64,000 nt of DNA from Candidatus Endomicrobium macrotermitis. Lineage in GTDB: Bacteria > Elusimicrobiota > Endomicrobiia > Endomicrobiales > Endomicrobiaceae. The notes below the pieces were generated by a model. It was not told the origin of the DNA. It saw only the letters and a program-made list of their open reading frames with translations, and ran no database searches. Positions 3,987-35,283 of the stretch are shown piece after piece. Numbering within the stretch: position 1 is the first letter of the stretch; the number at the start of each line of letters is the position of its first letter. The position numbers and the translations under genes were made by a program. The stretch is taken from assembly GCA_031271405.1 (NCBI GenBank), contig JAISVT010000039.1, positions 36,149 through 100,148 on the forward strand. Reading direction: 5' to 3'.

Positions 3987-3988
3987 TT

Positions 3989-5746: not shown

Positions 5747-5775
5747 GGAGCCGTTTTCGTAATAACGGTATTTAA

Positions 5776-7194: not shown

Positions 7195-7255
7195 ATGTAA
7201 AACCCGCGGTAAATGCAAAGCCGTTGCCGTGGGTCAATTGTTAAAAGAGGTCGGT

Positions 7256-8085: not shown

Positions 8086-8088
8086 AAA

Positions 8089-8917: not shown

Positions 8918-8977
8918 GAACGAACGGCTTTCGCCGCAATGACAAAGGCGCGCAGTTGTCGTTCCAAAGAGGGTAAA

Positions 8978-10673: not shown

Positions 10674-10707
10674 TGTTCAGATGCATCGCCGTTATAAAGG
10701 ATTTTAA

Positions 10708-12134: not shown

Positions 12135-12629
12135 ATGGATAAAATACGCGATAAAATAAAACGCTTTTTAAAAGATTCGAAAAACACGGTTTTTCTTTCA
12201 ATCGGATCTGAACTTCGCGGAGACGACGGCGCGTCTGTTTTGACCGCAAACGAACTTCTGAAAAAAGACCTTCCTTCAAATTTTAAAGTACTGCTCGGCT
12301 ATACGGCGCCCGAAAACCTTACAGGCGAAATAAAAAGAATAAAACCCACCCATATGATAATATGCGACGCGGCAAACGGCGGGCTTAAGCCCGGCGAAAT
12401 AGGCGTTATTTCCGTCAGCGACGTTGACGGCGCGGCTTTTTCGACGCATATGATGCCGATGAACGTTTTTATCGATTATATATCGCGCGATAACCCTTGT
12501 AAAACTTTGATTTTGGGCATACAGCCCGGCAGCGTGGAATTCGGGGCTGATATAACGGAAGAAGTCCGCGAAACCGCGATTGCTCTTGCGGACGCGGTTT
12601 TTGAGATTGTCAAACCCAAGAAAAAATAG
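12135..12629 (+). CDS. hycI: Hydrogenase maturation protease (HycI-like)
   Basis: IGSELRGDDG, PENLTG, ICDAA, STH; last gene of the operon. Confidence 0.9.
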   Translation: MDKIRDKIKRFLKDSKNTVFLSIGSELRGDDGASVLTANELLKKDLPSNFKVLLGYTAPENLTGEIKRIKPTHMIICDAANGGLKPGEIGVISVSDVDGAAFSTHMMPMNVFIDYISRDNPCKTLILGIQPGSVEFGADITEEVRETAIALADAVFEIVKPKKK

Positions 12630-13281: not shown

Positions 13282-14928
13282 ATGGCTAAATTTAAGCTTA
13301 CCGAAACTCCACAGTGGAAAAATCTTGAAAAACACAGAGAAGCAAATAAAAATCTTCACATGAGAGATTTGTTTAAAGATGACGGAAGGTTTAACGAATT
13401 TTCAATAGCAGACGAAGATTTGGGGATAACATTCGATTATTCTAAAAACATAATAAATTCCGAAACGTTTAAGCTGCTTATGGATTTCGCAAAGGCGGCA
13501 GGCGTAAACGAATACGCAAAAAAAATGTTTTCCGGAGAAAAAATCAACTGGACGGAAAAAAGGGCGGTGCTTCACACCGCATTAAGAAACGGAAGCGATA
13601 AACCGGTTTATGCGGACGGCAAAGACATTATGCCCGAAATAAACGCCGTGCTTGAAAAAATGAAGGTTTTCAGCGAAAACGTGAGAAGCGGAACATGGCT
13701 TGGCGCCACGGGCAAAAAAATCACCGACATTATAAATATAGGGATAGGCGGCTCGGATTTGGGGCCTAAAATGGTCTGCGAAGCGTTAAAATATTACGCG
13801 GACGGCCCGAACGTTCATTTTGTGTCGAATATAGACGGCGCGGATATTTACGAAACGCTGAAGAAAATAAATCCCGAAACGTCTCTTTTTATAGTCGCTT
13901 CCAAAACGTTTACGACTCTTGAGACGATGACCAACGCTTTCAGCGCGAAAAAATGGCTTACGGAAAAGCTCGGAGACAACGCGGTGGCAAGCCATTTTGC
14001 CGCTTTGTCCACAAACGGAAAAAAAGTGAAAGAGTTCGGCATAGACGAAAAAAATATGTTTGAGTTTTGGGATTTTGTCGGCGGCAGGTATTCCCTTTGG
14101 TCTGCAATAGGCCTGCCTATCGCATGTTCGGTCGGTTTTAGCAAATTTGCCGAACTGCTCGAAGGCGCCCGTTATATGGACAATCATTTTTTAAACGCGC
14201 CTTATGAAAAAAATATGCCCGTAATCATGGCCGCGCTCGGATTTTGGTATAACAACTTTTTCGGCGCGCAAAGCCACGCGGTTTTGCCTTACAGCCAGTA
14301 TCTGCACAGATTTACGGCGTATTTGCAGCAGGGCGATATGGAGTCCAACGGGAAAACCGTAAATATCGAAGGCGACAGGGTCGATTATGAAACGGGACAG
14401 ATAATTTGGGGCGAGCCCGGCACAAACGGGCAGCATTCTTTTTACCAGCTTATACATCAGGGGACGAAATTGATTCCCTGCGATTTTATAGGATTTGTGA
14501 ACCCTCCGCAAAGAGTCGAAGATCATCATGAAAAACTTATGGCAAACTTTTTTGCCCAGCCAGAAGCTTTGGCTTTCGGACTTACAAAAGAGCATGTTAT
14601 AGAAAATCTGACAAAAGCGGGACTTTCAAAAGAAGACATAGCAATGCTTGCGCCGCATAAAGAGTTTGAGGGAAATAAGCCCACAAACAGCATTTTAATC
14701 AATGAATTGACGCCAAAGACTTTGGGAGCGTTGATAGCTTTGTACGAACATAAGATTTTTACGCAGGGCGTGTTCTGGCGGGTCAACAGTTTTGACCAAT
14801 GGGGCGTGGAACTCGGCAAAGTTCTGGCAAACGCGATTCTTCCGGAGCTTCAGGGCAAAGCGGACAATTCGCATGACGTATCGACAAAAAATCTGATTAA
14901 AACATTCAAAGAAAAGAAAAAAATCTGA
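13282..14928 (+). CDS. pgi: Glucose-6-phosphate isomerase
   Basis: [64 protein letters not shown]. Confidence 0.98.
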
Positions 14929-14957: not shown

Positions 14958-14986
14958 TTGCCTGTCGGTTTTTTTTGATGTATAGT
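14958..14986 (+). promoter_or_regulatory. Sigma70 promoter with T8 tract in the spacer; likely leaderless transcript
   Basis: TTGCCT-N17-TATAGT with extended TG; ATG at 14993 lies at the expected +1; no SD. Confidence 0.55.
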
Positions 14987-14992
14987 TTAATT

Positions 14993-15487
14993 ATGAAAAT
15001 CAGAAAAATTATATCTATTATGATTATTTCTCTGATGATTTTGCCGTCTCTGGCAAAATCCGTTAGCGCCGATTCCGCCGTAAATCTATACGTAAACAGC
15101 GGAATAGCGGGTTATTATAATTCCATATCCAAAGCCGCGTTCGATATGACGCACAGGGTTTTGCAGGAACTCGGCGTTTCCTCGGAGCAAACTTCCAAAA
15201 AAGAAGTTCCGGCAAAAAATGAAACAGAAAACAATGATGAAGCGCAGGCCGTTATTTTAGACAATGCCTCGAAAAAGTCGGTTAAAACCATAGTTTCTTT
15301 TACTCCCGTTTTTTATGAAACGGCAAACAATTTTGAAAAGCCGGCGGTTTCGGCAAATTTTGATTTTCTTTTTGCGGGTTGGATGCTGTTTTTCGTACTG
15401 ATGTGTATTTTTTCCGTAAGAAAGAAAGATGATTGCGGAGTTTATTTCAATTATTACTATATAAGCAGACGCCCGATTGTATTATAG
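14993..15487 (+). CDS. Small hypothetical membrane protein upstream of the giant gene
   Basis: N-terminal signal/anchor (MKIRKIISIMIISLMILPSLAKSVSA) and C-terminal TM (LFAGWMLFFVLMCIFSV-RKK). Confidence 0.7.
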   Translation: MKIRKIISIMIISLMILPSLAKSVSADSAVNLYVNSGIAGYYNSISKAAFDMTHRVLQELGVSSEQTSKKEVPAKNETENNDEAQAVILDNASKKSVKTIVSFTPVFYETANNFEKPAVSANFDFLFAGWMLFFVLMCIFSVRKKDDCGVYFNYYYISRRPIVL

Positions 15488-15505
15488 ATCGGGCGTTTTC
15501 TTTTT
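15469..15505 (+). terminator. Terminator-like hairpin overlapping the stop codon of the small gene
   Basis: acgcccgat-N10-atcgggcgt followed by tttcttttt. Confidence 0.6.
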
Positions 15506-15554: not shown

Positions 15555-18500
15555 ATGTCTAAGATTATCAAGATGTTAAACTTTAAAAAGATTGTTTCCG
15601 CGGTTACGGCGGTTTGTTTCACTTTTTCGATTTTTTCGGCGAACGCTTTTGCGGCGCCCGCGCAAAGCGCGGCTCCGGCGCTTCAAACGGTCAATGCTTC
15701 TCCGGCGTTAAACCCTTCGAACTTTGTCGTTCCTTTTAACATAGGAAGGGTCACGGATTCCGTAAATTTTAAAAGCGATAAAGTTATAGTGCAAATTCAG
15801 GATTTGCACGCGCACGAGGAAACCCAGAGAAACATAGCCGGCATCCTCTCCCTTTTAGATTCAAAATATGGAATAAGCAAAGTATATGTTGAGGGCGCGG
15901 TCGGCGGCGTTGACACGTCGTGGCTTGCCGGCATTTCAAATGAAAGTTTGAAAAGCTCCATAACGGATTCGCTTCTTGCCGAAGGCGTTTTGACAGGGTC
16001 GGAATTATTTTCCGTCAATTCCGGGAAAACAAATATACTGAAAGGCATTGAAGACAGAAAAGCGTATTTGGATAATTTCCAAAGGCTTATAACGATAGAT
16101 TCGCAAAGAGACGAAATAAAATCGCTGTTTCCCGAAATCAGAATGATTCTTTCGTATTTGGCTGACAGACATTACGGGAAAGAAAACAGAAGGATCGGCT
16201 CGATCGTAAACAGATACAGGAACGGCAAAATTTCTTTTGACAAATATTTTTCTTTCCTGGTCAAAAAAGCGAAACAGCAAAACGTTTATTTCGGTTTCTA
16301 CCCTTCGATAGTTTTGTTGGCCGATATTATGAAAGTCCAAAACAGGCTCAATAAAAATAAAATTAATTCGCAGATAGCGGGCTTTTTGGAAGAACTCAAA
16401 TCCGAACTCGCGTATTCGGAGTATAAGGAACTGATAGAGTATTCGTCAAAGCCCGAAACCGAAGGAGTATTTTATTTTAAACTCGCCGAGTTTTACAATA
16501 AAGGAAATTACGGCGGAAAATATCCGGAACTTGCGAAATTTTTGCAGTTTATAGACCTTAACCAGACAATAAACCCGATAAATCTCGTAAATGAAGAAAG
16601 AGCTTTGCTGTGGGAAGTCAAAAACAAGGCCGCTGTAAACGGCAAAGAAAAAGAACTTATTTATTTGAGTTCTTTTATCGATTTGCTGGAAGGCTTTCTT
16701 GAAAACAAAATTACCGCTCCGGAATATCAGTATTTTGAAAGAGAGCTGCCTAAATTTAAAACTTTGTGGACAAAATATACCAGAATGACGGAACTTCCTG
16801 CGCTTGAACGGTATTATTCCCTGTTTGAAAGTTTTTACAAAGTCAATGTTGAGAGAAACAATATATTCGTAAAAGAAATAAGCGGCAATTTACCCGGCAC
16901 GAAAGCCTCGAATATGACGTTTTCAGGCGATATGGTGATGACCGATGCGGCGGGGCTTCTTGAAAGCGCAAAAGAAGTTGAAGTTGTAGTAACCGGAGGT
17001 TTTCACACTCAGGACGTTTCGAGAATTTTGCAAAACGCCCGCCAAAGCTATATTGTAATAACCCCAAACGTAACCCGGGACGCTGACCTTGCCGATAAAC
17101 TGTTTGCCGAAGACGTAATAAGAATTTCCAAATATATCCCGACAAATACTTTTCAGAAAGCTCTTCAGTCTGCCCGTCTGGATTTGACTGACGGCAGTGT
17201 TAAAAGCGCTGTGGGGATTTTCTTTCAAAAAGCCGTAATAGACGCTTTTAAGGCAGAAGCCGAGAAACAGCTGCAAGACAACGGTATTGACCCGTCAAAA
17301 GTCAGCGCTGCGGAATTATCGGAAGGCATAACGGAAGGCATAGAAAATTCTTCGATAAAATCGGAACTCAGTAAAAAAGGAGTCGAAGATTTTACAATCA
17401 AAGGGGTCGCCGTTAACAGTGACGGCAGTTATCTGGTAACCGTTGAATCTAAAGGGATTGAGACGGTATATTTAGTTGCTGAATCGGGCATTTCCGACGC
17501 GTCCGCAGATACCGGAAGCGCTGAAGAAAAGCCGAACGTAATTATAGCAATTGCCGGCGACATAGCTGAAGGTTTATCAAACGCGGTAAATAATATAGGT
17601 GAATTTTTCGGTTTGGCTGACAACCGCGCCGGATCTACGATAAATTTCCTTATCGCTTATGACAATTATAAAGCTTTGCCCGCGGGTTCGCAAAACAATC
17701 AAGCATACGCGGAAAACCTGAAAAGCGCCATAGATGAAGTGGAAAAACTCGGAGATAGAGTTTCGGATTCTTTAAGGCAGCAGGTTGAAGAAGCAAAAGT
17801 TCAGACCGGCTGGACGCCGGCTGCGCCGTTGCTGACTGCCGATTCCACTAAAAAAGCGTTCAGCAGGTTTTTCGGCGAGCGGTTTACAAATACGATTGTC
17901 GGACGGTTTATCGTTTCCGTCATAATTGCACCCTTCTATGAAAGAAGTAAGTTGATGGAAATTTACGAACTTCGCGGTATGGCCGATAATCCCGGACTCA
18001 ATGAAGAAGAAAGCGCGGACATTAGAAGACAGGCTGACGAGGCCCTCAGAGATTTCTTGATGGACCATGAAGATTATAAGATGGGAGAGTATGACGAAAG
18101 GGCGGCGTACAGAGCCGCATCTTCAAATATTTTCAGGATTTCCGGAAGGGCATATATAGCCGTTTTAAGAGTTACAAAAATAGAGGCATTGGCAAATTTA
18201 GCGGCAAATATTGCAAATGTGGCTGCTCATATGGCGTCGAATTTCGCGGGGATAACAAAAGGCGGAATTGTTTTGACAAGAGACGCGGAAGCAGTCGCAG
18301 TGCCGAATGAGCAGCAAATTTCCGCGTTATTGTCATCTATGAATTTAAGCGCGGAAAATGAAAGAACATTCAGAGAGATTATAGGGATATTGATCGAATT
18401 GAATGATACAAATGCTTTGGACGCAATATTTAACAAAGCAAATAACGAAAATAGAATTGAGCTGCTTTCCGCATTGGCTGAATTGAACAACCGCCGCAGT

Positions 18501-21500
18501 CTGGCCGAATATGTCGAAACGTTTAAAACAATTGCCGCAAGTTCAAAAGAAGGAGTGAATCCGACTACCGGAAAAACGACAAACCCCGTAAAAGAGAAGT
18601 CTGCAAAACAGATCGGAGGCTTTGAAGACCGGCAATACCAGAGATATTCCGATGAAGGGTTAAAGCACGCTGACGAACTGGCTGTCGTTTTAGTTGCAGG
18701 CGGAGTCGGAGACAGGCTGCGTTATAAGGTCAGAAATGAAAAAGGCGAACTTGTTGACGGTATTAAAATAGGCATACAGCCGAGTATAATAGACCAGCAA
18801 AGCTATCTTGAAAACGTGCTTAGTGAAATGGACGGATATGCATTGCAGCAAGGGAACAATGCGCATCCGATCCTTACGATAATGACGAGCGACAGCACTC
18901 ATGATATGACGGTCAAGTTTATTACCGAGAAGCTCGGATACACGCTTAAAGAAGTTGAAGTCGCGCCCGGCATTGTGAGAGTTGAATTGACCAATAATGC
19001 GAGGCCTACCGATAAGATATACATAATGACTCAAAAAAATGTGCCGGGGATTTTGGGCCCTGACGGAAGGCTTGCGATTGCCGAAGATAAAGATGAAGCG
19101 GGCAATCCTACCGGACATTACTCCCTCGAGACAAAACCGCACGGGCACGGAGACGTCCACGAATTGATGTACAGGACGGGCGTTGCGGGCGAATTGCAAA
19201 AGGCCGGAAAAAGCAAACTGATGTTTATACAAGACACAAACGGCGCGGTTATGAATACGGCGCTTTCTATGACCGGAATGATGTTTGAAGAAGGCAAGAA
19301 ACTTGCTGTTGGCACCGTTGCCATAGATCCCGGTGTTGACGCCGTAGGCTCCCTCATAGAAGTAACCGATCCCGAGACCGGAAGAACGTATGTGTTTAAT
19401 TTAGAATACAATTACGTAAAAGAGATGATAAAAAACGGGACGATAAAACAAGAGGATGTACCGAATTACATAAACGGAAATGTCAATATATTTGCGGTTG
19501 ACGTGGGCGCGTATATCGGTATTTTGGAAAGAACGGAGGGGAAAGTCGGAGAATTTACGAACCCTAAGCCTTCTTCGGACCCCAATACGTATAAATCTAC
19601 TGCCAGAATAGAAACCGAAATGCAGAGAATATATACGGAATTTGCCGAAGATGAAGTCGGCATAATAAATTTTCATGACAGGCCGTTTGCTTTCACTACG
19701 GCAAAGAACGGGATAAGAAATGCCGACGGCAGTTTTGTTGAGGGCGAACAAAAAGAAACTCTTCCTTCTTCCGAAGAAGATATCAATGAAAATTACAGAA
19801 AGATTTTGAGATTCGCCGGAGTTGAAGTTTCTGAAGCAGGAGAGGAAATAACTCTCGGACAGCAATATAAGAGAGGCTCTCAGATAAAGTTAAGGAATTG
19901 GGGATATACGCCCGATTCCGTGAAGGCCAGATTCAGCGGAAAAAATACAATAAGCGCAAGAAGCGCCGTCAGGTTGGACGGAAATGTGGGCTTTAACGGC
20001 CTTTCTGTTGACGGAGCCGTTAATGTCGTTGCCGCAAAAGGCGTAAGCGTAAGATTAAACGGCGCTATACAAAATGACGGCTACAGGACCGTTATGTATG
20101 CGGATGACGGTGAAAAAGCAAGAGAATTGCTTGAGCAGAAGCAATATGACCTTATGTCGCAATACGGCGTAAGGGGATATTACGCCGAGAAACTTCAGGA
20201 ACTGGACATAAAAATAACCCGTCCGGGTAACTATGAAGTATCGGTTGCCGGCAATAGAGTTATTGTAAGAGATACGGCCAGCGGAAGAGTCGCAATATTT
20301 GATTCCCTGAATGTTGAGGTTGACTCAAAAACAGAATTTACCGAAATGGAATCAATCGGCGAGGCAGAGCAACCGCAAGCCGGCGCGGTGCGGGCAAAAA
20401 CAGAACCTTTAACAAAAACGAATATTTGGCAGTCATTGAAAAGAGCTTACGACATAATGAAGAGAACGACAATAGCGGAATTGTACAAAAACGACCCCGA
20501 CAGGCAAACGAGAGAGTTGAGAGAGCGCAATTATACTATGTCGTTAAACGGCGAAAGTACGAATATGAGGTTTGATTTCGGTTTTAACAATCTTACTCAA
20601 GACGAAATTTCTCTGTTGTTGGATTTGGCCAGAGACAGGGACGTAAAAGGTTTTATAAGAGATATGATGAGCGGCGTAAAAATAAACACGTCCGAAAACA
20701 GGGCGGTTTTGCATACGGCTTTAAGAAACGTAAAAATGGAAAACGGCAAAATTGTAAGTTTAGGCCCTGTTTACGTTGACGGACAAGATGTTATGCCGCA
20801 GATAATACGCGAGCTGGAAAAAGCAAGAAATTTCGTAAACAGGTTGCACGGCGGCGAACTGAAAGGCGCCACGGGCAAACCTATTAAAACCATAGTAAGC
20901 ATAGGAATAGGCGGTTCGGACTTGGGGCCGAGAATGGCCTCGGAAGCATTGGAAAAATACAGAAAAGAGGGAATAGAGGTTAAATATATATCTAACGTTG
21001 AACCGAGGGCGGTTCAGAAAATTATTGAAAGCATAGACGACCTGGAAACTACTTTAATAATAGTCGAATCAAAAACGTTTACCACTCAAGAGACTACAAC
21101 TAATGCGCAAGCTGTAAAGGAACAGTTGATTGAAAAACTTAAAGCAAGCGCTGCTCTGGAAGCGGTTGTAACAAAAATGTCGGGAGACCAAATGTATGTA
21201 ATGGAGTTCGAATTGGTTCAAGCCGGAGAAGAAGGACACCGGATACCGATGGAAGATATTGAAAGTATTCAGGAGCGTGCCGAAAAAAGGCTTGCCGAAA
21301 GAAATATTAACGTTGCGCAGCTCAAAGCCGAAAAATATGAAGAGCGTGTAAAGTTTTATCTTGAAGAGAGAAAACGCAAATATGCGGAAGAAAAGGCCTC
21401 TGTGGGAGAAACGGTCAGCCAGGCAGATCTGGACAGTATAAGAGTGCCGTTATATGTTGATGAAAAGGCGGCGGAGCTTGATACTATGCGCTGGTATCTC

Positions 21501-24500
21501 GATTATATAAGCAAAGAGTATCAGGAAGAGCTTTCGGATTATATAGTTTCCAGGCATTTTGTCGCCGTGTCAACGGCAAAACAGCTGGTGGATGAGTTCG
21601 GCATAGATTCCGACAACAATATGTTTGAATTCTGGGATTTTGTCGGCGGCAGATACTCAATATGGTCAACGATAGGGCTGCCTTTGATGTGTTCCATAGG
21701 GTTTGACAACTTTATGGATATGTTGAAAGGCGCAAATACCATGGATCGCCACACTCTGGAAGCCGATTACGAAGATAATATCCCGATGAGGCTGGCATTA
21801 ATATGGATGTGGTACAGCAATTTCTACGGGTATGATCTCCATGCCGTAATTTCTTACAGCGAAGATTTGGCCAAGTTTGCGAAATATCTGCAGCAGCTGT
21901 ATATGGAAAGTCTTGGGAAATTTGTGGACAAAGACGGGAACCCCGTAGATTATAAAACGGGAGTGGCCGTTTTTGGAGAACCCGGAACGGATTCACAGCA
22001 CTCTTTCTTCCAGTTATTTCATCAGGGAACCGTAATAACTCCTATCGATTTCATCGGTTTTGTCATAGCTCCTGCGATAAAAGAAAATATGCCTATGGAA
22101 GAGCGTAGAAAAATACAGGGAAGACACGATATATTTATGTCGAATCTTTACGCGCAGCGCGAAGCAATGGCATTCGGTAAAGATTATGAGCAGGTTAAAG
22201 CCGAAACGGAAGCTTTAAGAGATGAAGTTGTAAATAAAATGAAAGCAGAAAACGCGTTATACGCCGACATAGAGTTTGAAATAGCGAGATGGAACGCAAT
22301 TGTTCCGCAAAAAGCATTTGAAGGAAACAGGCCTTCAAACTTAATTTTATTTGACAGATTAACTCCCGAAGCTTTGGGAATGAATATCGCATTGTATGAG
22401 CATTTAACGGCAATTCAGTCCGCGATATGGAACATAAACGCATTTGACCAATGGGGAGTTGAACTAGGCAAATCCCTTGCGAAAATATTGCAGCCGTTTA
22501 TGGGATTGGGCAAAGAGGCGGCTAAATTAGCAGGAAAAGTCAGCGGCACAACTTTAGACAATGTCGGATATTACAACAATGTGCTTGAAAATGCCCCCGA
22601 GTTTGCCCAAGCCGCGGCAGAGCCTTTCAACCGCGGCGGCATAGTTGCCCGTACAGCCGAAGCATGGCTGGGCAGGATGCAGGCGATGTTTACTAAAAAA
22701 GAAACAGAAAAAGCAGAGGCAGAAAAAGACTCGGAAAAAAAGCAAATATTGGAAGCGAAAATAGGCGAAGGCGCGGCGCTTACGGAAAGGCTTTTTGCAC
22801 AGTTTGAAATTTTGACCAGGACAGCGTTGGCGGAAGAAATGTCAGCCGAACAAATAGTGGATCTTTTTGCCAATAGAGATATCGAGATAGAAGTTGACGG
22901 AGTTAAAAAGACGGTCAAAGGGCTTACGAAAGAAGAAGCCGAAAAAATGAAGGCAACGTCTCTCAATCCCGAAAGCGAGGATAGAATTAAGTTCGGTACC
23001 GCGGGATACAGAAAACAATTCGGTCCGATGTTTAATTATGTTCATGCTATGGTAATCGCCCAGGCTGATGCTATGCGGCTGAAAGCAAAGAAAAGAATTC
23101 CCAGAGTGCTTATAGGGTATGATACGAGATTTATGTCTAAAGAGATTGCGGAAATTTATGCCGGCGTACTTTCCGCAAACGGAATCAACGTATATTTAAG
23201 CGACAAAGACATCCCTACTCCGGTAATTTCGTACTTGTTAAAACTCGGGGGATACGACAGCGCGGTCAATATAACCGCAAGCCATAACGCTTTTGACAAT
23301 AACGGCATCAAAATAAACGAAGCAAACGGAGGACAGGCTGTTCAGGAAACGACAAGCGCTTTAGAAAGAAATATAACCGACATAGTTTCAAACGGCGTAA
23401 AAATCAGGTATATACCTGCTGAGCAAGGCAAGAGGATTGCCAGGAGAGGAGTCGGCAGAATTAATGTATTGACGGATAAAGAGGCTATGGACGTATATTT
23501 GAGCGGTTTGGAAGCAATGCTGGAAGGGCTGGGTATAGATAAAACAGACGGAAATCTTAAAGGAAATGCCGCCGGAAGTTTCCTTGCGGTTGACACGAAA
23601 AGCGGAACCTCTCCCGCCTATTTCAAAAGAATGCTCGAGATGTTCGGAATTACGGAAGCCAACGGCAATCTTTCCATGATCAACGATGAATTCGATCCGA
23701 CTTTCCAAGGCGAAGATCCTAACCCCGACAGAAACATTGACAAATTGGTTGAAACCGTTACGGAAGCATTTAATCGCGGCAGGCTTTCTGTCGGAATTGC
23801 TACGGATCCTGACGCGGACAGGCTGGGTTTTACAGTTAACGGCATACGTTATACTACCGATCAGTTGATTTTTGCCGTAACCAGCGAAACATTGATGAAT
23901 GCTATCAGGGAATATGACGCTACCGGCAGAAAACAGGTCTTTGCGGAAGTTATAAACCAGCCTACAAGCGCTTCGACGGAATCTTTGAGGGATAATCTCG
24001 AAAACGCCGCCGGCATAATAGCCGATGAAAAAGGATTGACGGGGCAGGCAAAAGCCGACTTCATAAATGAAGTAAAAAATAACGTAACGTTTGAAGTTGT
24101 GCGCACCCCCGTAGGATTCAAGTGGATTGCTCCGGAACTGGAAGCTCTTGAAAAGAGAGCCGCGAAAGGCGAAACCGATTATTGGATTATCGGCGCGGAA
24201 GAATCCGGCGCTCTTGTTTTGGGCAAGAACAAAGTCCTTACTTACGATAAAGACGGTATTTTTATCATGCTCTATCTGGCGCTTCTCACCATTAAGACCG
24301 GCAAAAGCATGGCCGAAATGCTTGAAACGGCTGATAAAATCACGGGCTGGACTCCGGAAAAATATTTACAGAATATAGGGCTCGGCGAACTTTCTCAGCT
24401 TGCCGTGGTCAAAGAATATTTGAGGAATGCTTCAATTCCGGGCGCTGCACAATCGAGCTTTATAGATTCTTTAGCCGAAATAATGGAAAAATACGGCGCT

Positions 24501-26726
24501 AAAATTACCGGAGTTAAAGACGTAAATATTATTAACGGAGTGAAAGTTGACGAAGATTCCACAAAGGCAAAAGACGATAAAGACCAGCCTTTCGAAGGAG
24601 TGGAAATAACTACCGATAAAGGTATTAGGGTAATTGTGAGGCTTTCGGGTACGGAACCTATAGTAAAAGCTTATGTCGATACGGATTATGCCGAAGTCGG
24701 GAGCGAAGTGAAAAACGGAAAGACGGTTCCCGTAACTAAAGCCCAAGATATTGCCAAATCTTTTGAAAAGGTTGTTAAAGATGTGGCTTCACCGGAAACC
24801 GCGCAGCAAGAAACCGAATCCGGTATTCAAAAAATCATAAGCGACATTATCAAAGCTATCGCCGGGCTTTTGGGGATAAATTTGAGGAGCACTTATATTT
24901 CTAAAAACGCTTCGGAGCTTATCGGCAAGGAAGATACTATAATCCTCGGGGAATATTCCGACGATCAGTCTTTGTTCGACAATGCCGCCGAAAAAGCCGC
25001 GCTCGGCAAGAACGTAAATATAATTATGCCTTACGGCGCCGCGGCGGAAACAATCGAATCCGTAGGAAACACCGGTTCAAGGCATATTTACAAAAAGACT
25101 ATTACTCAGGATAACGGTTACTCGGTCAATGTCTGGTACTATTCCGGCGAAGTAACGGATTCGGCCGCGGCTTATGACGCTTTCAATTATGTGGCAAACG
25201 AGATCGGAGGAAATATCGGGATAGTGGAAAACGCGTCGAATATTTCTCTTAACGATATTACCGTTGCCGCGCCGCTGGCCGCAGTTTTCAAAGTAACGTC
25301 TAATGCCGCCGAAGACATTCAGGCGAAAAACGAAGGATATCAGAATTTTACCAACGGGATGTCCGAAGAAGACAAAGTCAAAGTTTTGGCCGGCAGGCAA
25401 AAAGAAGACAGGGAAGGCGACAATATGAGAAACCAGCTTCCGCTGATAACCAATGTCGGCGCAGCGCAAATAAAAAATACGGATATGATCGCGTCTCTTA
25501 TGACTACGGTGTTTTCCGTAGAGATTGCGTCCGTTTCCGAATTTGAGCAAAATGCCGGCGACCTGATAAATTTTATCAGAGCGGCTCACGCGGCGGATAA
25601 AAGAGTAGTTTTGAATTTTAAACCCGCGAACGCGCAGGAAGCTGGAAAGATTATGGAAATGATAAACGGCAAAGGATTAAGGGGCTTGAGAATCAGCTTG
25701 ACGGAAAACGGAGTAAGATCGGGCATCGACGGAGTAATGTTTGATTTCGATTCGCTCGGCAGCGAAGAATTCAATAAGATCGCAGGCAGCCTGGCAACAG
25801 CCGCTTCCGCGGTAAAGAGAGAAAATTCCGGCGCGATAATATCCGTTAAGTCCGATTTTTACGCGCAGCGCATCGCCGGCATCGACAACTATAACGAATA
25901 TATCAACATAAGCGGAAATTACAATGAGAATACGGTTGACGTAAACGAAATTGCGCAATCCGCCAAAGACGCCATTGAAAGAGGGGCAAAGGCTTTGGTC
26001 ATAGACTACGAAGTTTTAGAGCTTTTGCAAACGCGCGGAATAAATGTCGATATATACGGCCTTTTCCTGGGGATAGTTGCAGCATGGACTTCGTATGTAA
26101 AGAAAACGCCGGAAGGCATTTACAGAAACGCAAGGCGTTCGGGATATAAAGAGAATATAAATTTGACTCCCGAGCAGGAAAGCGGATTGTATGAAGCGTT
26201 GAGAGAATTAAATGCCGGAAACAAAGCCGCGGTGCAAACGGTTTCCGAAATTTTGCAAACGTCCAAAGCGAATGTTTTGGACAAAGAAGAAACGGCGGAA
26301 GCAAGAGGCTACGTACAGGGCGTTCTTGAACAGTTTTTGGTTAAGAATTTCGGCGAAAAGACGTTTGAATATAAAACAAACGCGGACGTTTACAGAATCG
26401 CTTTGGTAATGGCGAAAATGAACGGGATGAGCGACGATGCCGTAAAAAGCGCGCTGGACAGTGATTCCGAAAAAATAGCGCAAATGCTTGTCAGGCTCGA
26501 TATAGACGACGTATCTGCCGGACAGGTGCAAAAAGACGTACAGGAAGGAATTAACGTTCTCATTTCGGATTTGGAAGATAACAGGATTGACAATGACGGA
26601 AAACCTCAGGCGATTACCGACTTGCTGGCTATGCTCGGCATAGCTCAAACTACCGAAGTCAAAATGGAACAGGTTAAATTTGACGATCAGCGCGCGGGAA
26701 TTGTCGCAATTTTGTCCGCAGCGTAA
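15555..26726 (+). CDS. Giant (3723 aa) signal-peptide protein: N-terminal QDLH/EG/GGFH domain, UDP-sugar pyrophosphorylase, glucose-6-phosphate isomerase, phosphoglucomutase-family domain, C-terminal domain
   Basis: Uninterrupted 11.2 kb ORF, SD gaaagggg, signal peptide ending ANAFA, enzyme motifs listed in the domain features. Confidence 0.93.
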   Translation: MSKIIKMLNFKKIVSAVTAVCFTFSIFSANAFAAPAQSAAPALQTVNASPALNPSNFVVPFNIGRVTDSVNFKSDKVIVQIQDLHAHEETQRNIAGILSLLDSKYGISKVYVEGAVGGVDTSWLAGISNESLKSSITDSLLAEGVLTGSELFSVNSGKTNILKGIEDRKAYLDNFQRLITIDSQRDEIKSLFPEIRMILSYLADRHYGKENRRIGSIVNRYRNGKISFDKYFSFLVKKAKQQNVYFGFYPSIVLLADIMKVQNRLNKNKINSQIAGFLEELKSELAYSEYKELIEYSSKPETEGVFYFKLAEFYNKGNYGGKYPELAKFLQFIDLNQTINPINLVNEERALLWEVKNKAAVNGKEKELIYLSSFIDLLEGFLENKITAPEYQYFERELPKFKTLWTKYTRMTELPALERYYSLFESFYKVNVERNNIFVKEISGNLPGTKASNMTFSGDMVMTDAAGLLESAKEVEVVVTGGFHTQDVSRILQNARQSYIVITPNVTRDADLADKLFAEDVIRISKYIPTNTFQKALQSARLDLTDGSVKSAVGIFFQKAVIDAFKAEAEKQLQDNGIDPSKVSAAELSEGITEGIENSSIKSELSKKGVEDFTIKGVAVNSDGSYLVTVESKGIETVYLVAESGISDASADTGSAEEKPNVIIAIAGDIAEGLSNAVNNIGEFFGLADNRAGSTINFLIAYDNYKALPAGSQNNQAYAENLKSAIDEVEKLGDRVSDSLRQQVEEAKVQTGWTPAAPLLTADSTKKAFSRFFGERFTNTIVGRFIVSVIIAPFYERSKLMEIYELRGMADNPGLNEEESADIRRQADEALRDFLMDHEDYKMGEYDERAAYRAASSNIFRISGRAYIAVLRVTKIEALANLAANIANVAAHMASNFAGITKGGIVLTRDAEAVAVPNEQQISALLSSMNLSAENERTFREIIGILIELNDTNALDAIFNKANNENRIELLSALAELNNRRSLAEYVETFKTIAASSKEGVNPTTGKTTNPVKEKSAKQIGGFEDRQYQRYSDEGLKHADELAVVLVAGGVGDRLRYKVRNEKGELVDGIKIGIQPSIIDQQSYLENVLSEMDGYALQQGNNAHPILTIMTSDSTHDMTVKFITEKLGYTLKEVEVAPGIVRVELTNNARPTDKIYIMTQKNVPGILGPDGRLAIAEDKDEAGNPTGHYSLETKPHGHGDVHELMYRTGVAGELQKAGKSKLMFIQDTNGAVMNTALSMTGMMFEEGKKLAVGTVAIDPGVDAVGSLIEVTDPETGRTYVFNLEYNYVKEMIKNGTIKQEDVPNYINGNVNIFAVDVGAYIGILERTEGKVGEFTNPKPSSDPNTYKSTARIETEMQRIYTEFAEDEVGIINFHDRPFAFTTAKNGIRNADGSFVEGEQKETLPSSEEDINENYRKILRFAGVEVSEAGEEITLGQQYKRGSQIKLRNWGYTPDSVKARFSGKNTISARSAVRLDGNVGFNGLSVDGAVNVVAAKGVSVRLNGAIQNDGYRTVMYADDGEKARELLEQKQYDLMSQYGVRGYYAEKLQELDIKITRPGNYEVSVAGNRVIVRDTASGRVAIFDSLNVEVDSKTEFTEMESIGEAEQPQAGAVRAKTEPLTKTNIWQSLKRAYDIMKRTTIAELYKNDPDRQTRELRERNYTMSLNGESTNMRFDFGFNNLTQDEISLLLDLARDRDVKGFIRDMMSGVKINTSENRAVLHTALRNVKMENGKIVSLGPVYVDGQDVMPQIIRELEKARNFVNRLHGGELKGATGKPIKTIVSIGIGGSDLGPRMASEALEKYRKEGIEVKYISNVEPRAVQKIIESIDDLETTLIIVESKTFTTQETTTNAQAVKEQLIEKLKASAALEAVVTKMSGDQMYVMEFELVQAGEEGHRIPMEDIESIQERAEKRLAERNINVAQLKAEKYEERVKFYLEERKRKYAEEKASVGETVSQADLDSIRVPLYVDEKAAELDTMRWYLDYISKEYQEELSDYIVSRHFVAVSTAKQLVDEFGIDSDNNMFEFWDFVGGRYSIWSTIGLPLMCSIGFDNFMDMLKGANTMDRHTLEADYEDNIPMRLALIWMWYSNFYGYDLHAVISYSEDLAKFAKYLQQLYMESLGKFVDKDGNPVDYKTGVAVFGEPGTDSQHSFFQLFHQGTVITPIDFIGFVIAPAIKENMPMEERRKIQGRHDIFMSNLYAQREAMAFGKDYEQVKAETEALRDEVVNKMKAENALYADIEFEIARWNAIVPQKAFEGNRPSNLILFDRLTPEALGMNIALYEHLTAIQSAIWNINAFDQWGVELGKSLAKILQPFMGLGKEAAKLAGKVSGTTLDNVGYYNNVLENAPEFAQAAAEPFNRGGIVARTAEAWLGRMQAMFTKKETEKAEAEKDSEKKQILEAKIGEGAALTERLFAQFEILTRTALAEEMSAEQIVDLFANRDIEIEVDGVKKTVKGLTKEEAEKMKATSLNPESEDRIKFGTAGYRKQFGPMFNYVHAMVIAQADAMRLKAKKRIPRVLIGYDTRFMSKEIAEIYAGVLSANGINVYLSDKDIPTPVISYLLKLGGYDSAVNITASHNAFDNNGIKINEANGGQAVQETTSALERNITDIVSNGVKIRYIPAEQGKRIARRGVGRINVLTDKEAMDVYLSGLEAMLEGLGIDKTDGNLKGNAAGSFLAVDTKSGTSPAYFKRMLEMFGITEANGNLSMINDEFDPTFQGEDPNPDRNIDKLVETVTEAFNRGRLSVGIATDPDADRLGFTVNGIRYTTDQLIFAVTSETLMNAIREYDATGRKQVFAEVINQPTSASTESLRDNLENAAGIIADEKGLTGQAKADFINEVKNNVTFEVVRTPVGFKWIAPELEALEKRAAKGETDYWIIGAEESGALVLGKNKVLTYDKDGIFIMLYLALLTIKTGKSMAEMLETADKITGWTPEKYLQNIGLGELSQLAVVKEYLRNASIPGAAQSSFIDSLAEIMEKYGAKITGVKDVNIINGVKVDEDSTKAKDDKDQPFEGVEITTDKGIRVIVRLSGTEPIVKAYVDTDYAEVGSEVKNGKTVPVTKAQDIAKSFEKVVKDVASPETAQQETESGIQKIISDIIKAIAGLLGINLRSTYISKNASELIGKEDTIILGEYSDDQSLFDNAAEKAALGKNVNIIMPYGAAAETIESVGNTGSRHIYKKTITQDNGYSVNVWYYSGEVTDSAAAYDAFNYVANEIGGNIGIVENASNISLNDITVAAPLAAVFKVTSNAAEDIQAKNEGYQNFTNGMSEEDKVKVLAGRQKEDREGDNMRNQLPLITNVGAAQIKNTDMIASLMTTVFSVEIASVSEFEQNAGDLINFIRAAHAADKRVVLNFKPANAQEAGKIMEMINGKGLRGLRISLTENGVRSGIDGVMFDFDSLGSEEFNKIAGSLATAASAVKRENSGAIISVKSDFYAQRIAGIDNYNEYINISGNYNENTVDVNEIAQSAKDAIERGAKALVIDYEVLELLQTRGINVDIYGLFLGIVAAWTSYVKKTPEGIYRNARRSGYKENINLTPEQESGLYEALRELNAGNKAAVQTVSEILQTSKANVLDKEETAEARGYVQGVLEQFLVKNFGEKTFEYKTNADVYRIALVMAKMNGMSDDAVKSALDSDSEKIAQMLVRLDIDDVSAGQVQKDVQEGINVLISDLEDNRIDNDGKPQAITDLLAMLGIAQTTEVKMEQVKFDDQRAGIVAILSAA
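18600..20270 (+). other. Domain: UDP-sugar pyrophosphorylase (USP/UGPase family)
   Basis: VVLVAGGVGDRL, TKPHGHGDVH, FIQDTN, NLEYN, GNVN, EFTNPK, TARIETEMQ, then a beta-helix-like tail (LSVDGAV). Boundaries approximate. Confidence 0.85.
20410..22590 (+). other. Domain: glucose-6-phosphate isomerase with ~130-aa insertion
   Basis: [65 protein letters not shown]. Boundaries approximate. Confidence 0.95.
22980..24790 (+). other. Domain: alpha-D-phosphohexomutase (PGM/PMM)
   Basis: FGTAGYR, GYDTR, phosphoserine loop ITASHN, metal loop TDPDADR, TPVGFKWI, GAEESG, DKDG, RLSGTEP. Boundaries approximate. Confidence 0.95.
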
Positions 26727-26747
26727 AAACAGCTTGCTTTTTCCGGA

Positions 26748-26787
26748 CCGGCAGCCCGAAGATATTCGGGCTGCCGGCTTTTTTATT
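26748..26787 (+). terminator. Intrinsic terminator after the giant gene
   Basis: ccggcagcccgaa-gata-ttcgggctgccgg followed by a T-run. Confidence 0.9.
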
Positions 26788-26841
26788 TATAAAGATATAT
26801 TGAAAAATCAATCATTTTGTGTTATAAATATAATCTATCTT

Positions 26842-28230
26842 ATGAATATGAATATTACTGTTCCGGACAAATTTGCCGGCATAATAGACAAAATTCTGCA
26901 GACTGCCGTTGAAAAAGGGTACGAAACGTACGCTGTCGGAGGGTTTGTCAGGGATTTGTTTATAGGCAGAGAACCGAAAGATCTGGATATTATGGTCGAA
27001 AACATAAACGACCGCGCAGACAGGCTTGCCGGAATAAATTTCTCCAGACAAATCGCCGCGAAATTCGATCTGGGCGAGCCGGTAGTCTTCGAAAGGTTCG
27101 GCACGGCAAAACTTTTTATAGACGGCGAAGAAGTGGAATTTGTCATGCCGCGCAAAGAATATTACGACAGCAGTTCCAGAAATCCGGATACGGAAATCGG
27201 GACGCTCGGGCAAGACGCTTTAAGAAGGGATTTTACGGTCAACGCTTTGTTTTTAAGCCTGAACGATATGCGCGTTTTGGATTTTACGTCCAAAGGGCTT
27301 AAAGACATAGAAGATAAAATCATAAGGATCGCGGATCCCTCCAATTCCGCGGTAATATTTAATCAGGATCCGCTGCGGATTTTGCGCGCCGTGCGGCAAA
27401 GCCTTCAGCTGGGGTTTTCAATAGAAACCGAAACTTATAAAGAAATGAAAGTTTCGCCGGAGCGCATCAAAATAGTTTCTCCCGAGAGAGTAAGAGACGA
27501 AATAAACAAAATACTTGCCGAAAAAAAGCCGTCGGAAGCCTTTAAAATGCTTGACGATATAGATCTTCTCGGCGAGATTTTGCCCGAAATTTCAAGGCTT
27601 AAAAATTTAAAGCAGCCCGAAAAATACCACGCTGACGACGTTTATAACCATACTCTGAAAGTTTTGGACAGGACGGAACCGGAACTCGTTTTAAGAATGT
27701 CGGCGCTGCTTCACGACAGCGGAAAATTCAACGCGTATAAAGAAACCGGCGGAAAAATCACTTTTTACGGCCACGAAAACGAAAGCGTTAAAATCGCCGG
27801 AGACGTTTTAAAGAGGTTAAAGTATCCGAAAGAGTTTGCGCAGAAAGTTTCCGCGGTAATAAAAAACCATATGTATCCGAAAACGTATTCCCCGCAATGG
27901 GGCGACGCGGCGGTAAGAAGATTCGCAAAAGCCGCGGGCGAAAATCTGGAATCGATACTTGCCCTGTCGAGAGCCGATTACGGAAAAACCGGCGGCGAAT
28001 CAAAAATAGGCGAACTTATAAGCAGAATGGAAAATCTGAAAACCGCGGGGCTCTTGTGCCTGAAAGACGAGCTTGTAAACGGCGCGGAAATACTGAAATA
28101 TTTCAATATGCCGCGCGGAGCCTGGGTCGGCGAAGTTAAAAACAAAATAGAGGAATTGCGGCTTGAAAATCCGAAAATAACTAAAAAAGAAGCGTTGGAG
28201 ACCGTAAAAACTCTATTAAAAATCAAATAA
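26842..28230 (+). CDS. cca: CCA tRNA nucleotidyltransferase / poly(A) polymerase family protein with HD domain
   Basis: VGGFVRD..DLD, DALRRDFTVNA, DPLRILRA, ERVRDE, HT...LLHD. CCA vs A-/CC-adding not distinguishable by eye. Confidence 0.88.
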   Translation: MNMNITVPDKFAGIIDKILQTAVEKGYETYAVGGFVRDLFIGREPKDLDIMVENINDRADRLAGINFSRQIAAKFDLGEPVVFERFGTAKLFIDGEEVEFVMPRKEYYDSSSRNPDTEIGTLGQDALRRDFTVNALFLSLNDMRVLDFTSKGLKDIEDKIIRIADPSNSAVIFNQDPLRILRAVRQSLQLGFSIETETYKEMKVSPERIKIVSPERVRDEINKILAEKKPSEAFKMLDDIDLLGEILPEISRLKNLKQPEKYHADDVYNHTLKVLDRTEPELVLRMSALLHDSGKFNAYKETGGKITFYGHENESVKIAGDVLKRLKYPKEFAQKVSAVIKNHMYPKTYSPQWGDAAVRRFAKAAGENLESILALSRADYGKTGGESKIGELISRMENLKTAGLLCLKDELVNGAEILKYFNMPRGAWVGEVKNKIEELRLENPKITKKEALETVKTLLKIK

Positions 28231-28512: not shown

Positions 28513-31500
28513 ATGGCTATTAATTATTTTACGGGCATTAAGAAATACATTAACAATTTTTTTGAAAGAGTCGAGTTTCATGCCGAAGACATGAATATTC
28601 TTTTTACGAAATCAAAAAGGGAAGAATACGACAAACTTTTAGAGTTCTACAATACCACGGTCAAGCAAAATCCCACCGACGCGTCGGCGTATTACAACCG
28701 CGGGCAGATACATCACAAAAAAGGAAAATACGAAGACGCCATAAGAGAGTTTACGAAAGCCATAGAATTGGACCCCAATTATTCTTTTGCATATGTCGCA
28801 AGGGGAGAGTCTTACGCCGCTCTCGAACAATTCGATATTTCTCTTGAAGATTTCCGCAAGGCCGTAGAGCTGAATCCCAAAAATTCTACGGTTTTCAGCG
28901 GACTCGGCAACGTTTACAGGCGGCAGGGAAACTACGGCGAAGCGATCCGTTATTTTGACGAAGCGCTGGAGCTCGGCAAGGAAAACGCGGCGGCATATTA
29001 CGGAAGGGCTATGGCGTACAGATACAAGGGAGAAACCGAAAAATCCATAGCCGATTTTACAAAATCGATAGAGCTTAACCCGAACGACGATTATTCCTAC
29101 ACCAACAGAGGCATAGCTTACAGAAACGCGGAAGATTTGGACAATGCGCTGAAAGATTTTAACAAATCTCTCGAAATAGAGCCCGGAAATTCTTTCACTT
29201 TGACCAACAGAGGCATAGCTTACAGGATAATGCTTGACGAAGACGCGGCGGAAAAAGATTTTAAAGACGCCGTTGCAAGCAATCCCGAAGATACGTTTGC
29301 CCATTATAATCTTGCAAACCTGTATAAGTACAAAGGCTTTCCCGATAAGGCTTTCAAGGAAATAGAAAAAGCCATAGAAGTCGATTATAAATTCGCTCCG
29401 GCGTTTTTAATGAGAGCCTATATGTACTGCGAACAGGGCGAATACGATACCGCCATCGAAGATGCCGAGCAGGCTATAGAATTTATGCCGGAAGTGGCGT
29501 TCGCGCGTTTTTTCAAAGGCTATATACAGCACGTAATGAAAGATTTTAACGGCGCGGTGGAAAGTTACCGGATCGCCGTTGACATTAAAGACAATGTTCC
29601 GGAAATATTATACGCTTACGGGCTTTCTGCTTTGGCCGGAAAAGATTTTCAGCTTGCGGATTCGAATTTTACGCGCGCCTTAGAGCTCGGCTTCAAACCC
29701 GCGGAAATATATGTGGCAAGAGGGCAGTCCTTTCTGTCGGTGAAAAACAATCTTCTCGCCGTAAAAGATTTTAACGAAGCTTTAAACAAAGACAACGGCA
29801 TAATCGAAGTTCATTATATGAGAGGGGAAGCTTATTTTAACCTCAAAGAATATAAAAGCGCGGTAAAGGAATTTATTGAATGCGCGGAAAACAATTATCA
29901 GAAAGCCGAGTCGTTTTATTTTGCCGCAGCCGCGTATTTCGAGCTTGAAAAATACAGGGATGCCGCGTCTTTTTTTACAAAAGCGAAAGATGCGGGGTAT
30001 TCGGTTTCGGAAATATATAAACGCCGTGCGAAAGCTTATCTGAAAATTGACGAAAAAAAAGAAGCTCTTGACGATTTGCAAAGAGCCGTTAAAGAAACCC
30101 CGCAGAATCCTTCCCTGTACAAAACCCTTGCCGAAGTTATGATCGACGAAAAGAAATACGAAGAGGCTTTGGGATACGCCGATGAAGCCGTAAGTTTGTC
30201 GCAAAATGACGAGACGGCTTATTATTTGAGAGCTAAAATAAAATTCGCGCAGAAAGATTTCAAAGGGGCGATTGAAGACTGCGAAAAAGCCGGCGAATTG
30301 TCTCCGGATTACGCAGACGCCATTCTTTTGAAAGCCGACGCGCATATGTACGAGGGGAATCTTGAACAGGCGGAAAAAGATTACGATTCCGTTTTGGTTT
30401 TAAGGCCTACCAGCGGCGACGCGTATCTTAAAAGAGCGTTGTTTTTCCTTAAAACGGGAAAGTTTGAAAGATCTCTCACCGATATTGACGAAGCGCTGGC
30501 GATAGACGACAACAATCCTTCGGCCTATCTTTACAAAGGCGTCATATACAGAAATATGGGAAATTTCGGAGACTCTCTCAAAAATTACGATATGGCTTTG
30601 AAAATATATTCGAACGATAAAGTCATAAAAAGCAGCAAAGGGATGTTTGAGTTCAAAGATTATTATAAAAGCCATTCCGGGGATCTTGCGGGTCTTCACG
30701 GCGACATAGAAAAGATTAACCAGGAAATACCGGGTTACGATAAAGTCATAAAAGCGGATCTTTTTGAAGAGAGCGGCGTTACTCTTTCGGGCGGAGAAAA
30801 AAAGAAAACCGCGTACGACTCTCCCGAAATGCCTAAAGAGTTGTCGGAAATAACCAAACTTAAAACTCTCAAGCCCGAGAAACTTTCCGCTGAAAGGGGT
30901 TCCTCTGCGGCTAAACATGAAAGTCTGAAGAATGAAGACGATGAATTCGAAATTTCGGCGCCGAAAAAGAGAGAATCCGAAGACGATGAAGATATTTTCG
31001 ATATTTCCGTTCCGGCCGCTCCAAAAAGCGGCGGCAGAGAAGAAAAATCCGGAGATGCCGCTGATGACGATTCGGACGGCGGAGCGGACGGCGATGCGGT
31101 TGTCGCCGGCGGATTGAAAGATAAACTTAAAGACATAGACGAACTGATAAAAAACTTTAAAAACAAAAGCGGCCCGCAAAAATCTTCCGACCCTGTGCCC
31201 GAAAGAAAAAAAGAAGAGAGTTTGCTTGACGATATAAAAGAAAAGAGCCCCCGCCGCGAAACCCCCGCGCCCAAGCCTGCCGCGGATACGGATGAGGAAG
31301 AATCGGGAATGAGCGCGAGCGAGAGTTTAAAGCAGAAGCTTGCCAATATCGACAAGGTGTTAAAAGACAGCCCTCAGCAGCTTATTCAAAGAGCGGAAAA
31401 GAAAAGAACCATTTTTATAGAAGAAGATAAAAAACCCGAAGCAAAGAAGGACTTTTCCAATATAACGACTTTCGGCGAAGCGATAGAAGCAATAAAAGCC

Positions 31501-35200: not shown

Positions 35201-35283
35201 TTACGGCAGGCGAATAGAGGCGTAGGCGCATGGACGCACGGCAAAAACAAAAAGTTTTTCCATGCGTCTGTGCATCTTTTAAT

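Follow-up and report, generated by a model that had tools for sequence, protein, structure and literature searches.

A giant leader-bearing protein of a termite-gut Endomicrobium joins three sugar-phosphate enzymes and belongs to a large head-cargo-tail family

Why should a bacterium place three enzymes of cytoplasmic sugar metabolism in one very long chain behind a leader of the Sec type? The question is raised by a locus in Candidatus Endomicrobium macrotermitis, within a stretch of 64,000 nucleotides (NCBI GenBank assembly GCA_031271405.1, contig JAISVT010000039.1, positions 36,149 to 100,148 of the forward strand) which is referred to here as the window and numbered from its first letter. 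A single open frame at 15555-26726 (+), 11,172 nt in length and with zero internal stops, encodes a protein of 3,723 aa (P0001), in which a leader and a conserved head are followed by a linker, a UDP-sugar pyrophosphorylase (USP), a glucose-6-phosphate isomerase (PGI), an alpha-D-phosphohexomutase (PGM), a C-terminal module and a short terminal motif. The original prediction, of one such frame with a Sec-type leader and three enzymes with catalytic motifs present in all three, is confirmed. Judged from its sequence, the gene is intact and accessory, and its product belongs to a very large family of head-cargo-tail proteins found in Elusimicrobiota and Omnitrophota. Where the enzymes work is the harder part of the question. 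The reading that we favour, and to which we give somewhat less than an even chance, is that the protein lies outside the cytoplasmic membrane, is catalytically active, and interconverts UDP-hexose, hexose-1-phosphate and hexose-6-phosphate there.

It is the head that defines the family. The first ~600 residues find about 19 paralogues in the 1.887-Mb, 64-contig genome (22-40% identity, E 1e-12 to 1e-121) and, with fragments cut at their 5' ends included, the family amounts to ~52,600 residues, or 8.4% of the genome. A word-based database search returned 37 giants of 2.3-6.5 kaa (thousand residues) from Endomicrobia and Omnitrophota, which have the head in common and differ in their cargo: PGK, UDPGP with GH8, CBM48/alpha-amylase, PPDK_N, PGM with transaldolase, SecA-like, GlnA, GGDEF and PEP-utilisers. 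When a head profile was compared with 1.84 billion representatives, 9,078 clusters were matched (5,243 at E <= 1e-30), with the head nearly always at residues 1-600. Members with a name belong to Endomicrobiia, other Elusimicrobiota and Omnitrophota; the proteins from metagenome-assembled genomes (MAGs) of Endomicrobiia and Elusimicrobiota are annotated by cargo such as 6-phosphofructokinase, iPGM/NDP-sugar epimerase, GNAT or metallophosphoesterase. The head of P0001 is homologous to those of the Omnitrophota giants P0024 and P0026 (E 1e-23 to 1e-26), and is 67-74% identical to the heads of P0002, P0003 and P0004 and of loci in Ca. Endomicrobium embiratermitis and Ca. E. neocapritermitis, the only two Endomicrobium MAG loci returned by a single-protein locus scan. 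Similarity to L001 (the Ca. E. embiratermitis locus), L002 and P0002 ends abruptly at residue ~650, a sign that the cargo has been swapped.

The cargo of the paralogues in the same genome is equally varied, comprising CofD with HAD, PPDK_N with PEP-utilisers, CBM48 with a GH13-like domain, RelA/SpoT-like and metallophosphoesterase domains, besides many parts for which the libraries have no match. PGM is paired with PGI again in P0014 and in the 4,970-aa protein encoded next to P0013, and the USP of P0001 matches two tandem copies in P0011 at 41-44%; the exact order USP-PGI-PGM is seen on the P0001 contig alone. The gene adjoining P0013 (L003 1-3943, ERZ21831019:ctg34019c) is recorded with Pfam adenylate kinase, PGM I/II and PGI domains. 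P0001 has the hallmarks of the family, namely a leader leading directly into a ~520-aa head with DLH...EG...GGxH and an end of the form Φ-L-x-[AS]-[AS], and it departs from the family in lacking the internal transmembrane (TM) or protease-like modules that otherwise lie between cargo units. Thus the paralogues, the head clusters, the differing cargo and the break at residue ~650 uphold the earlier idea of a modular giant family with swappable enzyme cargo. The genome also holds a leaderless set consisting of pgi, a PGM-like mutase, GlmM, a nucleotidyltransferase-mutase fusion and a glucose-1-phosphate cytidylyltransferase. Since pgi and PGM are also present without a leader, the fused enzymes are accessory, and the earlier view that the fused pgi copy is not needed for housekeeping stands.

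The gene itself has the marks of an independent unit. A Shine-Dalgarno sequence (AGGGGG) lies 6-7 nt 5' of the ATG, and an intrinsic terminator, with a 13-bp GC-rich stem (10 GC pairs) followed by a T-run, lies 3' of the gene at 26748-26777 (+). Composition along the gene is uniform, with a GC content of 0.42-0.46 and level strand skews. Of the four junctions between modules, three are seen again, co-linear, in independent assemblies, from PGI to PGM in P0014, from PGM to the C-terminal module in P0004 and from head to linker in P0006, P0009 and P0010, which argues against a chimaeric assembly.

The first enzyme, at residues ~980-1469 (18492-19961, +), scores just above the Pfam cut-off for PF01704 (UDPGP), with 23 bits against 22. 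Taken alone, the region matches PDB entry 9uml (E 1.8e-38, residues 109-570 of 600) and the Leishmania enzyme 3ogz (E 4e-18), and it conserves the USP motifs LVAGGVGDRL, KPHGHGDVH, QDTNG and FTNPK. The nearest stand-alone USPs, of ~594 aa, come from Verrucomicrobiota, Pontiella, Omnitrophota and plants, with 28-32% identity over 92-100% of the query. On this sequence evidence the module is of the USP type, and a recent eukaryotic transfer need not be invoked. It resembles the plant, Leishmania and PVC-bacterial enzymes over their full length, with the C-terminal beta-helix region among the parts matched, and retains the motifs that bind the nucleotide and the sugar phosphate. It differs from them in its low identity, in its NB-loop (GDRLRY) and in its place inside a giant chain behind a leader.

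The isomerase occupies residues ~1618-2320 (20406-22514, +) and is recognised by PF00342 (553 bits) and by NF001211, where its 606 bits exceed the equivalog cut-off of 492 for glucose-6-phosphate isomerase. Both PROSITE signatures (PS00765 and PS00174) are present, as are the glutamate of MES, the histidine of QHS and the lysine of ELGK. The module and the product of the leaderless pgi nearby align over their full lengths at 40-49% identity, a distance at which a recent local duplication was rejected and the claim of a companion note, that the two are close paralogues, is not borne out. Two of the three cysteines of the leaderless enzyme are replaced in the fused one. A charged helical insert of 131 aa at residues ~1866-1996 (21150-21542, +) is missing from both the stand-alone enzyme and the PGI of P0014. 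The mutase, at residues 2478-3047 (22986-24695, +), contains all four domains of the PGM/PMM fold (PF02878, PF02879, PF02880 and PF00408), with a phosphoserine loop TASHNA, in which the final proline is replaced by alanine, a metal-binding loop DPDADR, a sugar-binding loop GAEESG and a phosphate-binding loop RLSGTE. Its best NCBIfam matches fall far under the equivalog cut-offs, and their scores do not reveal which sugar it uses. It is co-linear with P0004 at 38% identity, the alignment running on into the C-terminal module.

The head module, at residues ~57-525 (15723-17129, +), was delimited by alignment and by an AlphaFold2 model (pLDDT 77.5, pTM 0.74), in which an alpha/beta core with strands at 64-83, 107-119, 162-165, 474-481 and 498-504 is split by a large helical insert (168-443). 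Fourteen residues are invariant over 17 aligned heads: D83, L84, H85, Q91, E113, G114, E150, E166, N431, R434, G481, G482, H484 and P504. The head has no significant sequence match in Pfam, NCBIfam or PDB, and one head of the 17 matches ChaN (PF04187) at a marginal E of 0.0098. An affinity to ChaN, erythromycin esterase (Ere) or Tiki (TraB-PrgY-GumN) proteins, as proposed earlier, is no more than plausible: like them, the head has an alpha/beta core covered by a helical lid, and its invariant residues follow the pattern H...E...H(GGxH). It differs in its helical insert of ~275 residues, which is far larger, and in that the matches are non-significant.

At the other end of the chain, residues ~3150-3718 (25002-26708, +) form a module of ~600 aa that is specific to a subfamily, its hidden Markov model finding P0003-P0015 and one paralogue in the same genome (C49) only. 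It has no Pfam match, only sub-threshold local matches to GH13-like PDB entries (AH..KVVIEF, GIDGV.FDF), and a single-sequence AlphaFold2 model of it (pLDDT 40) is unusable. The protein then ends in I-L-S-A-A-COOH (26709-26723, +), a family-specific motif. In a motif scan, [ILMVF]-L-x-[AS]-[AS] was the end of 19 of the 2,056 ORFs of at least 150 aa in the genome, and without exception these are paralogues with the head or fragments that lose their 5' part at the start of a contig. Most complete database relatives share the Φ-L-x-[AS]-[AS] end, and the others show related small-residue ends. A tail motif exclusive to one family is what would be expected of a recognition signal. A single S41 C-terminal processing peptidase with a leader is found in the genome (TIGR00225, 332 bits) and is a possible candidate for the reader of a small non-polar tail of the ILSAA type. 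No tmRNA was found by ARAGORN in the 64 contigs, either because the assembly is incomplete or because the gene is divergent, which leaves no ssrA tag to set beside the tail.

Further giant ORFs are cut at the starts of contigs C30, C19, C44 and C51 (8,448, 4,420 and 4,063 aa). The ends of those on C30 and C19 are identical (…DIRHARAVAQAA), as are those on C44 and C51 (…TLAVRNILAAA), a pattern which suggests that the assembly is broken by repeats or by giant genes of nearly the same sequence.

The leader spans residues 1-33 (15555-15653, +) and consists of MSKIIKMLNFKK, a hydrophobic core and ANA/AFA sites; it provides the sole hydropathy window above 1.6. Within it, residues 13-31 are the only membrane-grade segment of the protein by hydropathy, preceded by four lysines and followed by cleavage-type sites A-N-A/A-F-A. 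The ~30 residues after the leader carry no positive charge, and its charges fit the positive-inside rule. A positive n-region, a hydrophobic h-region and small residues at -3/-1, the sequence features of a Sec signal peptide for signal peptidase I, are all present; the h-region is rather long (~20 aa) and could serve as an uncleaved anchor. The same design, with a Lys/Arg-rich stretch, a hydrophobic core and A-x-A sites 25-35 residues in, is found on all ~19 paralogues, and leaders of the P0001 design on 146 of 178 family members. Other leader classes were considered and rejected: there is no lipobox ahead of Cys21, as a lipoprotein signal would need, and the prepilin and Tat motifs are both absent.

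Beyond the leader, the next-best hydropathy windows reach at most 1.46 and are located within enzyme cores. The linker between head and USP is a degenerate CPBP-like unit (17883-18269, +; motifs APFYER, FLMDH and AAHMASN) without membrane-grade hydrophobicity, its maximum being 1.44. Residues 760-899 resemble the linkers of P0006, P0009 and P0010 at 31-41%, and the E/H/H-N motifs of the unit also sit in genuine TM modules of paralogues C1, C63, C24 and C33, the first of which has the canonical CPBP motifs LEESVFR, FTWAH and LLHSANN. In P0001 the unit has one glutamate only and non-hydrophobic helices, and so falls outside the CPBP (CAAX/Abi) definition; a Pfam scan at 1e-4 found no PF02517 match. 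Internal TM modules are present in 111 of 130 long relatives (85%), leaving 19 in the TM-free state of P0001, and those inspected look hairpin-like or four-helix CPBP-like and would keep both flanks on one side. As P0001 has no membrane-grade segment after residue 31, its head and cargo would share one compartment.

On the reading that we favour, the chain would be carried by its leader through the cytoplasmic membrane, and USP, PGI and PGM would then stand in the periplasm or beyond, forming a linked line: UDP-hexose + pyrophosphate (PPi) <-> hexose-1-phosphate <-> glucose-6-phosphate <-> fructose-6-phosphate. The direction of scavenging, which is independent of nucleoside triphosphates (NTPs), would be the more plausible one. 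The head, possibly an Ere/ChaN/Tiki-like hydrolase, would serve in sorting, tethering or processing and not in sugar chemistry, and the tail, as a possible ligand of the single S41 peptidase, may serve the same ends. The cysteine content is consistent with such a location. In this genome it is 0.20% for the family, 1.20% for ORFs without hydrophobic segments and 0.51% for other leader-only ORFs; database relatives of the family have 0.32% over 488 kaa. P0001 has two cysteines in 3,723 residues, at positions 21 (in the leader) and 2046, so that the mature chain contains a single one. Envelope-typical cargo also occurs among paralogues and relatives, in the form of CBM48 with a GH13-like domain and of GH8 in the precomputed domain list of P0008.

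Several points weigh against this location. USP requires UTP, or PPi and a UDP-sugar, and PGM requires a glucose-1,6-bisphosphate primer; other cargo of the family (adenylate kinase, PGK, PFK, PPDK-type, RelA/SpoT-like, GlnA and SecA-like) depends on ATP or further nucleotides, and the periplasm is not known as a source of such nucleotides and cofactors. A crude screen of the incomplete genome found a GlcP-type glucose porter only and no UhpT/UhpC-like hexose-phosphate importer, leaving unsupported the earlier proposal that the enzymes make importable hexose phosphates. Residues 777-795 are borderline hydrophobic (1.44) and might be an overlooked membrane segment; they are interrupted by an arginine and have their positive flank on the head side, a charge pattern that argues against this. 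The fold match of the head is non-significant, the best PDB hits in Foldseek being EreC and an Ere-like protein at E 0.18 and a TM-score of about 0.13-0.17. Finally, the case for export of P0001 is drawn from sequence alone.

Could the protein instead face the cytoplasm, its N-terminal segment acting as a tether or not being used for export, so that the fusion would channel metabolites between fructose-6-phosphate and UDP-hexose, for example for glycan or glycogen synthesis? We consider this rather unlikely, although it accounts readily for the strictly cytoplasmic metabolites used by the three enzymes and by most family cargo. The TM modules of the 111 long relatives would be able to place cargo inside, the borderline segment at 777-795 might do the same here, and a mis-called topology for such domains is suspected by West-Roberts et al. 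Yet the modules inspected, which look like hairpins or four-helix units, would have their flanks on the same side, and in the segment at 777-795 it is the flank towards the head that is positive. Moreover, positive charges precede the leader and none follows it, with A-x-A sites 25-35 residues in on all paralogues, a six-fold depletion of cysteine is unexplained for cytoplasmic proteins, and leaderless paralogues already cover the cytoplasmic job. A different view, to which we attach similarly limited credence and which fits either location, is that the chain is a polyprotein precursor, from which USP, PGI and PGM would be released as separate enzymes through cleavage by the head, by the S41 peptidase or by modules of the CPBP-like or HExxH kind. 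Between their cargo units, relatives do have HExxH motifs and CPBP-like modules with E/H/H-N, the head keeps its invariant D-H...E...E...H set, the tail resembles substrates of C-terminal processing peptidases, of which one is encoded, and autoprocessing has been proposed for Omnitrophota giants. No recurrent linker or cleavage peptide was found across the paralogues of this genome, however, the terminal ILSAA being their sole common 5-mer, and in P0001 the CPBP-like unit is degenerate and the HExxH module absent.

Delivery of the chain into a protist, bacterium or archaeon, where it would rewire the sugar-nucleotide pool in the manner of a MARTX effector, is improbable. Nucleotide-dependent cargo would be sensible inside a target cell, conserved ends with swappable central enzymes parallel MARTX, and the Omnitrophota relatives are thought to be host-dependent according to the preprints. 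Against this, RTX repeats are absent and a protease of the CPD type would lack its cysteine; among the neighbours of the paralogues in this genome, sensor histidine kinases alone recur, and genes for secretion or injection do not; and most relatives are multi-pass membrane proteins, while enzymes of a housekeeping type would be odd effectors. Embiratermes and Neocapritermes are higher termites, which to our knowledge lack gut flagellates, and the closest named relatives of P0001 come from MAGs with these higher-termite names, so that the delivery into a host cytoplasm suggested in the original prediction is weakened. Least probable of all, to the point of being hard to sustain, is an artefact, whether misassembly of separate genes or a decaying copy with dead enzyme domains. 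It is true that the USP-PGI-PGM order is unique to this contig, that the phosphoserine loop of PGM has alanine for proline and the USP loop reads GDRLRY instead of GERLGY, and that the loss of TM modules might be degenerative. The frame is nevertheless open for 11.2 kb with even composition and its own Shine-Dalgarno sequence and terminator, three of its four junctions occur in other assemblies, and all the catalytic motif sets are kept.

Parts of the system have precedents. West-Roberts et al. 2023 (bioRxiv 10.1101/2023.11.21.568195) mention Omnitrophota giants with a leader or TM segments that contain PGI and PGM domains, and doubt where these domains lie; the same domains and the same paradox of localisation appear in a 2026 preprint (bioRxiv 10.64898/2026.06.07.730766). 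The statement that the fusion had not been characterised therefore needs qualifying: PGI/PGM giants of Omnitrophota are already in these two preprints, whereas literature searches for giant proteins of Endomicrobium found none. Like P0001, the Omnitrophota giants are very long leader- and/or TM-bearing chains of cytoplasm-type sugar enzymes, with PGI and PGM/PMM listed among them. P0001 differs from them in coming from termite-gut Endomicrobiia (Elusimicrobiota), in being far smaller (3.7 kaa) and in having no TM helix past the leader, which makes an overlooked TM segment a weaker escape than it is for the Omnitrophota proteins. Term searches of both preprints found no description of a shared head, a C-terminal pentapeptide or cysteine depletion.

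More distant systems offer partial parallels. As in MARTX, constant N- and C-terminal parts frame exchangeable enzymes, with sharp breaks in similarity at the module borders; unlike MARTX, P0001 has zero GGxGxD repeats, no cysteine protease domain, one cysteine in the mature chain, an N-terminal Sec leader in place of the leaderless design of type I secretion, and cargo of a housekeeping type and not toxins. In E. coli, UshA and Agp are periplasmic enzymes that act on exogenous UDP-glucose and glucose-1-phosphate. They provide a precedent for envelope enzymes working on a UDP-sugar and a sugar phosphate, but they are hydrolases that discard the phosphate and use no PPi or NTP, whereas the enzymes of P0001 would conserve the phosphoester, for a product whose importer was not found in the screen. 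Cargo of the type IX secretion system of Bacteroidota likewise combines an N-terminal leader with a C-terminal signal confined to one cargo family. That two-ended addressing relies on a beta-sandwich C-terminal domain of ~80 aa, and the putative signal of P0001 is instead a free C-terminal pentapeptide with a loosely conserved tail of ~30 aa.

The flanks of the giant gene are partly conserved. The leaderless housekeeping pgi (13282-14928, +; NF001211 at 824 bits), expected about 600 bp upstream, ends 626 nt before it. Between the two lies a small ORF at 14975-15487 (+) of about 165-169 aa (ATG at 14993), whose product starts with a leader and has near its C-terminus a TM segment that precedes RKKDD; it has zero Pfam or NCBIfam matches and no paralogue adjoining other giants, and a terminator-like hairpin occurs at its 3' end (15467-15498). 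An orthologue holds the same position in Ca. E. embiratermitis (L001 2272-2781), where the order of pgi, ~169-aa ORF and giant gene is kept. There a pair of genes for a HipB-like helix-turn-helix protein and a HipA kinase (L001 638-2214), absent from the window, is inserted between pgi and the small ORF. Downstream, an ORF of the CCA-adding/poly(A) polymerase family (26680-28230, +) is listed with a TTG start that falls inside the giant gene, so that it spans the terminator at 26748-26777; its real start probably lies further downstream. Two genes downstream of the giant gene, 28513-35001 (+) encodes a cysteine-poor protein (0.23%) of 2,162 aa that consists of little else than TPR repeats; TPR arrays are cargo in the distant head-bearing relatives P0022 and P0025. 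Elsewhere in the window, ORFs were confirmed to be present at 2466-12629, flagged earlier as a cluster for an Mbh-type group 4 hydrogenase, and at 35230-36531, flagged as IscS-like without the pyridoxal phosphate lysine, the latter matching Aminotran_5.

A broader proposition is that Endomicrobia and Omnitrophota possess a second set of sugar-phosphate and nucleotide-sugar enzymes, free of cysteine, which they export, and so run part of their central sugar metabolism in the envelope. These enzymes would be directed by a two-ended address, made up of leader and head at one end and the Φ-L-x-A-A terminus at the other, and P0001 would be the cleanest case because it has no hidden helix to return it. 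The proposition is distinctly doubtful. What is new here is the extension of the family to termite-gut Endomicrobia, with an expansion to ~20 copies, together with the cross-phylum head profile of 9,078 clusters, the family-exclusive C-terminal pentapeptide, the cysteine statistics and a TM-free USP-PGI-PGM member suited to a decisive test of topology. Being short, without internal membrane helices and equipped with three easily assayed enzymes, P0001 is a practical test object for the localisation paradox of the Omnitrophota giants. If its enzymes work outside, the confinement of sugar-phosphate and nucleotide-sugar chemistry to the cytoplasm would fail for two phyla of ultrasmall bacteria, and the head and C-terminal pentapeptide would define an undescribed route of sorting or processing that uses at least 8% of the genome. 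Should they work inside, a family of more than 9,000 clusters in which enzyme cassettes are exchanged freely would still represent a natural library of fused metabolic lines.

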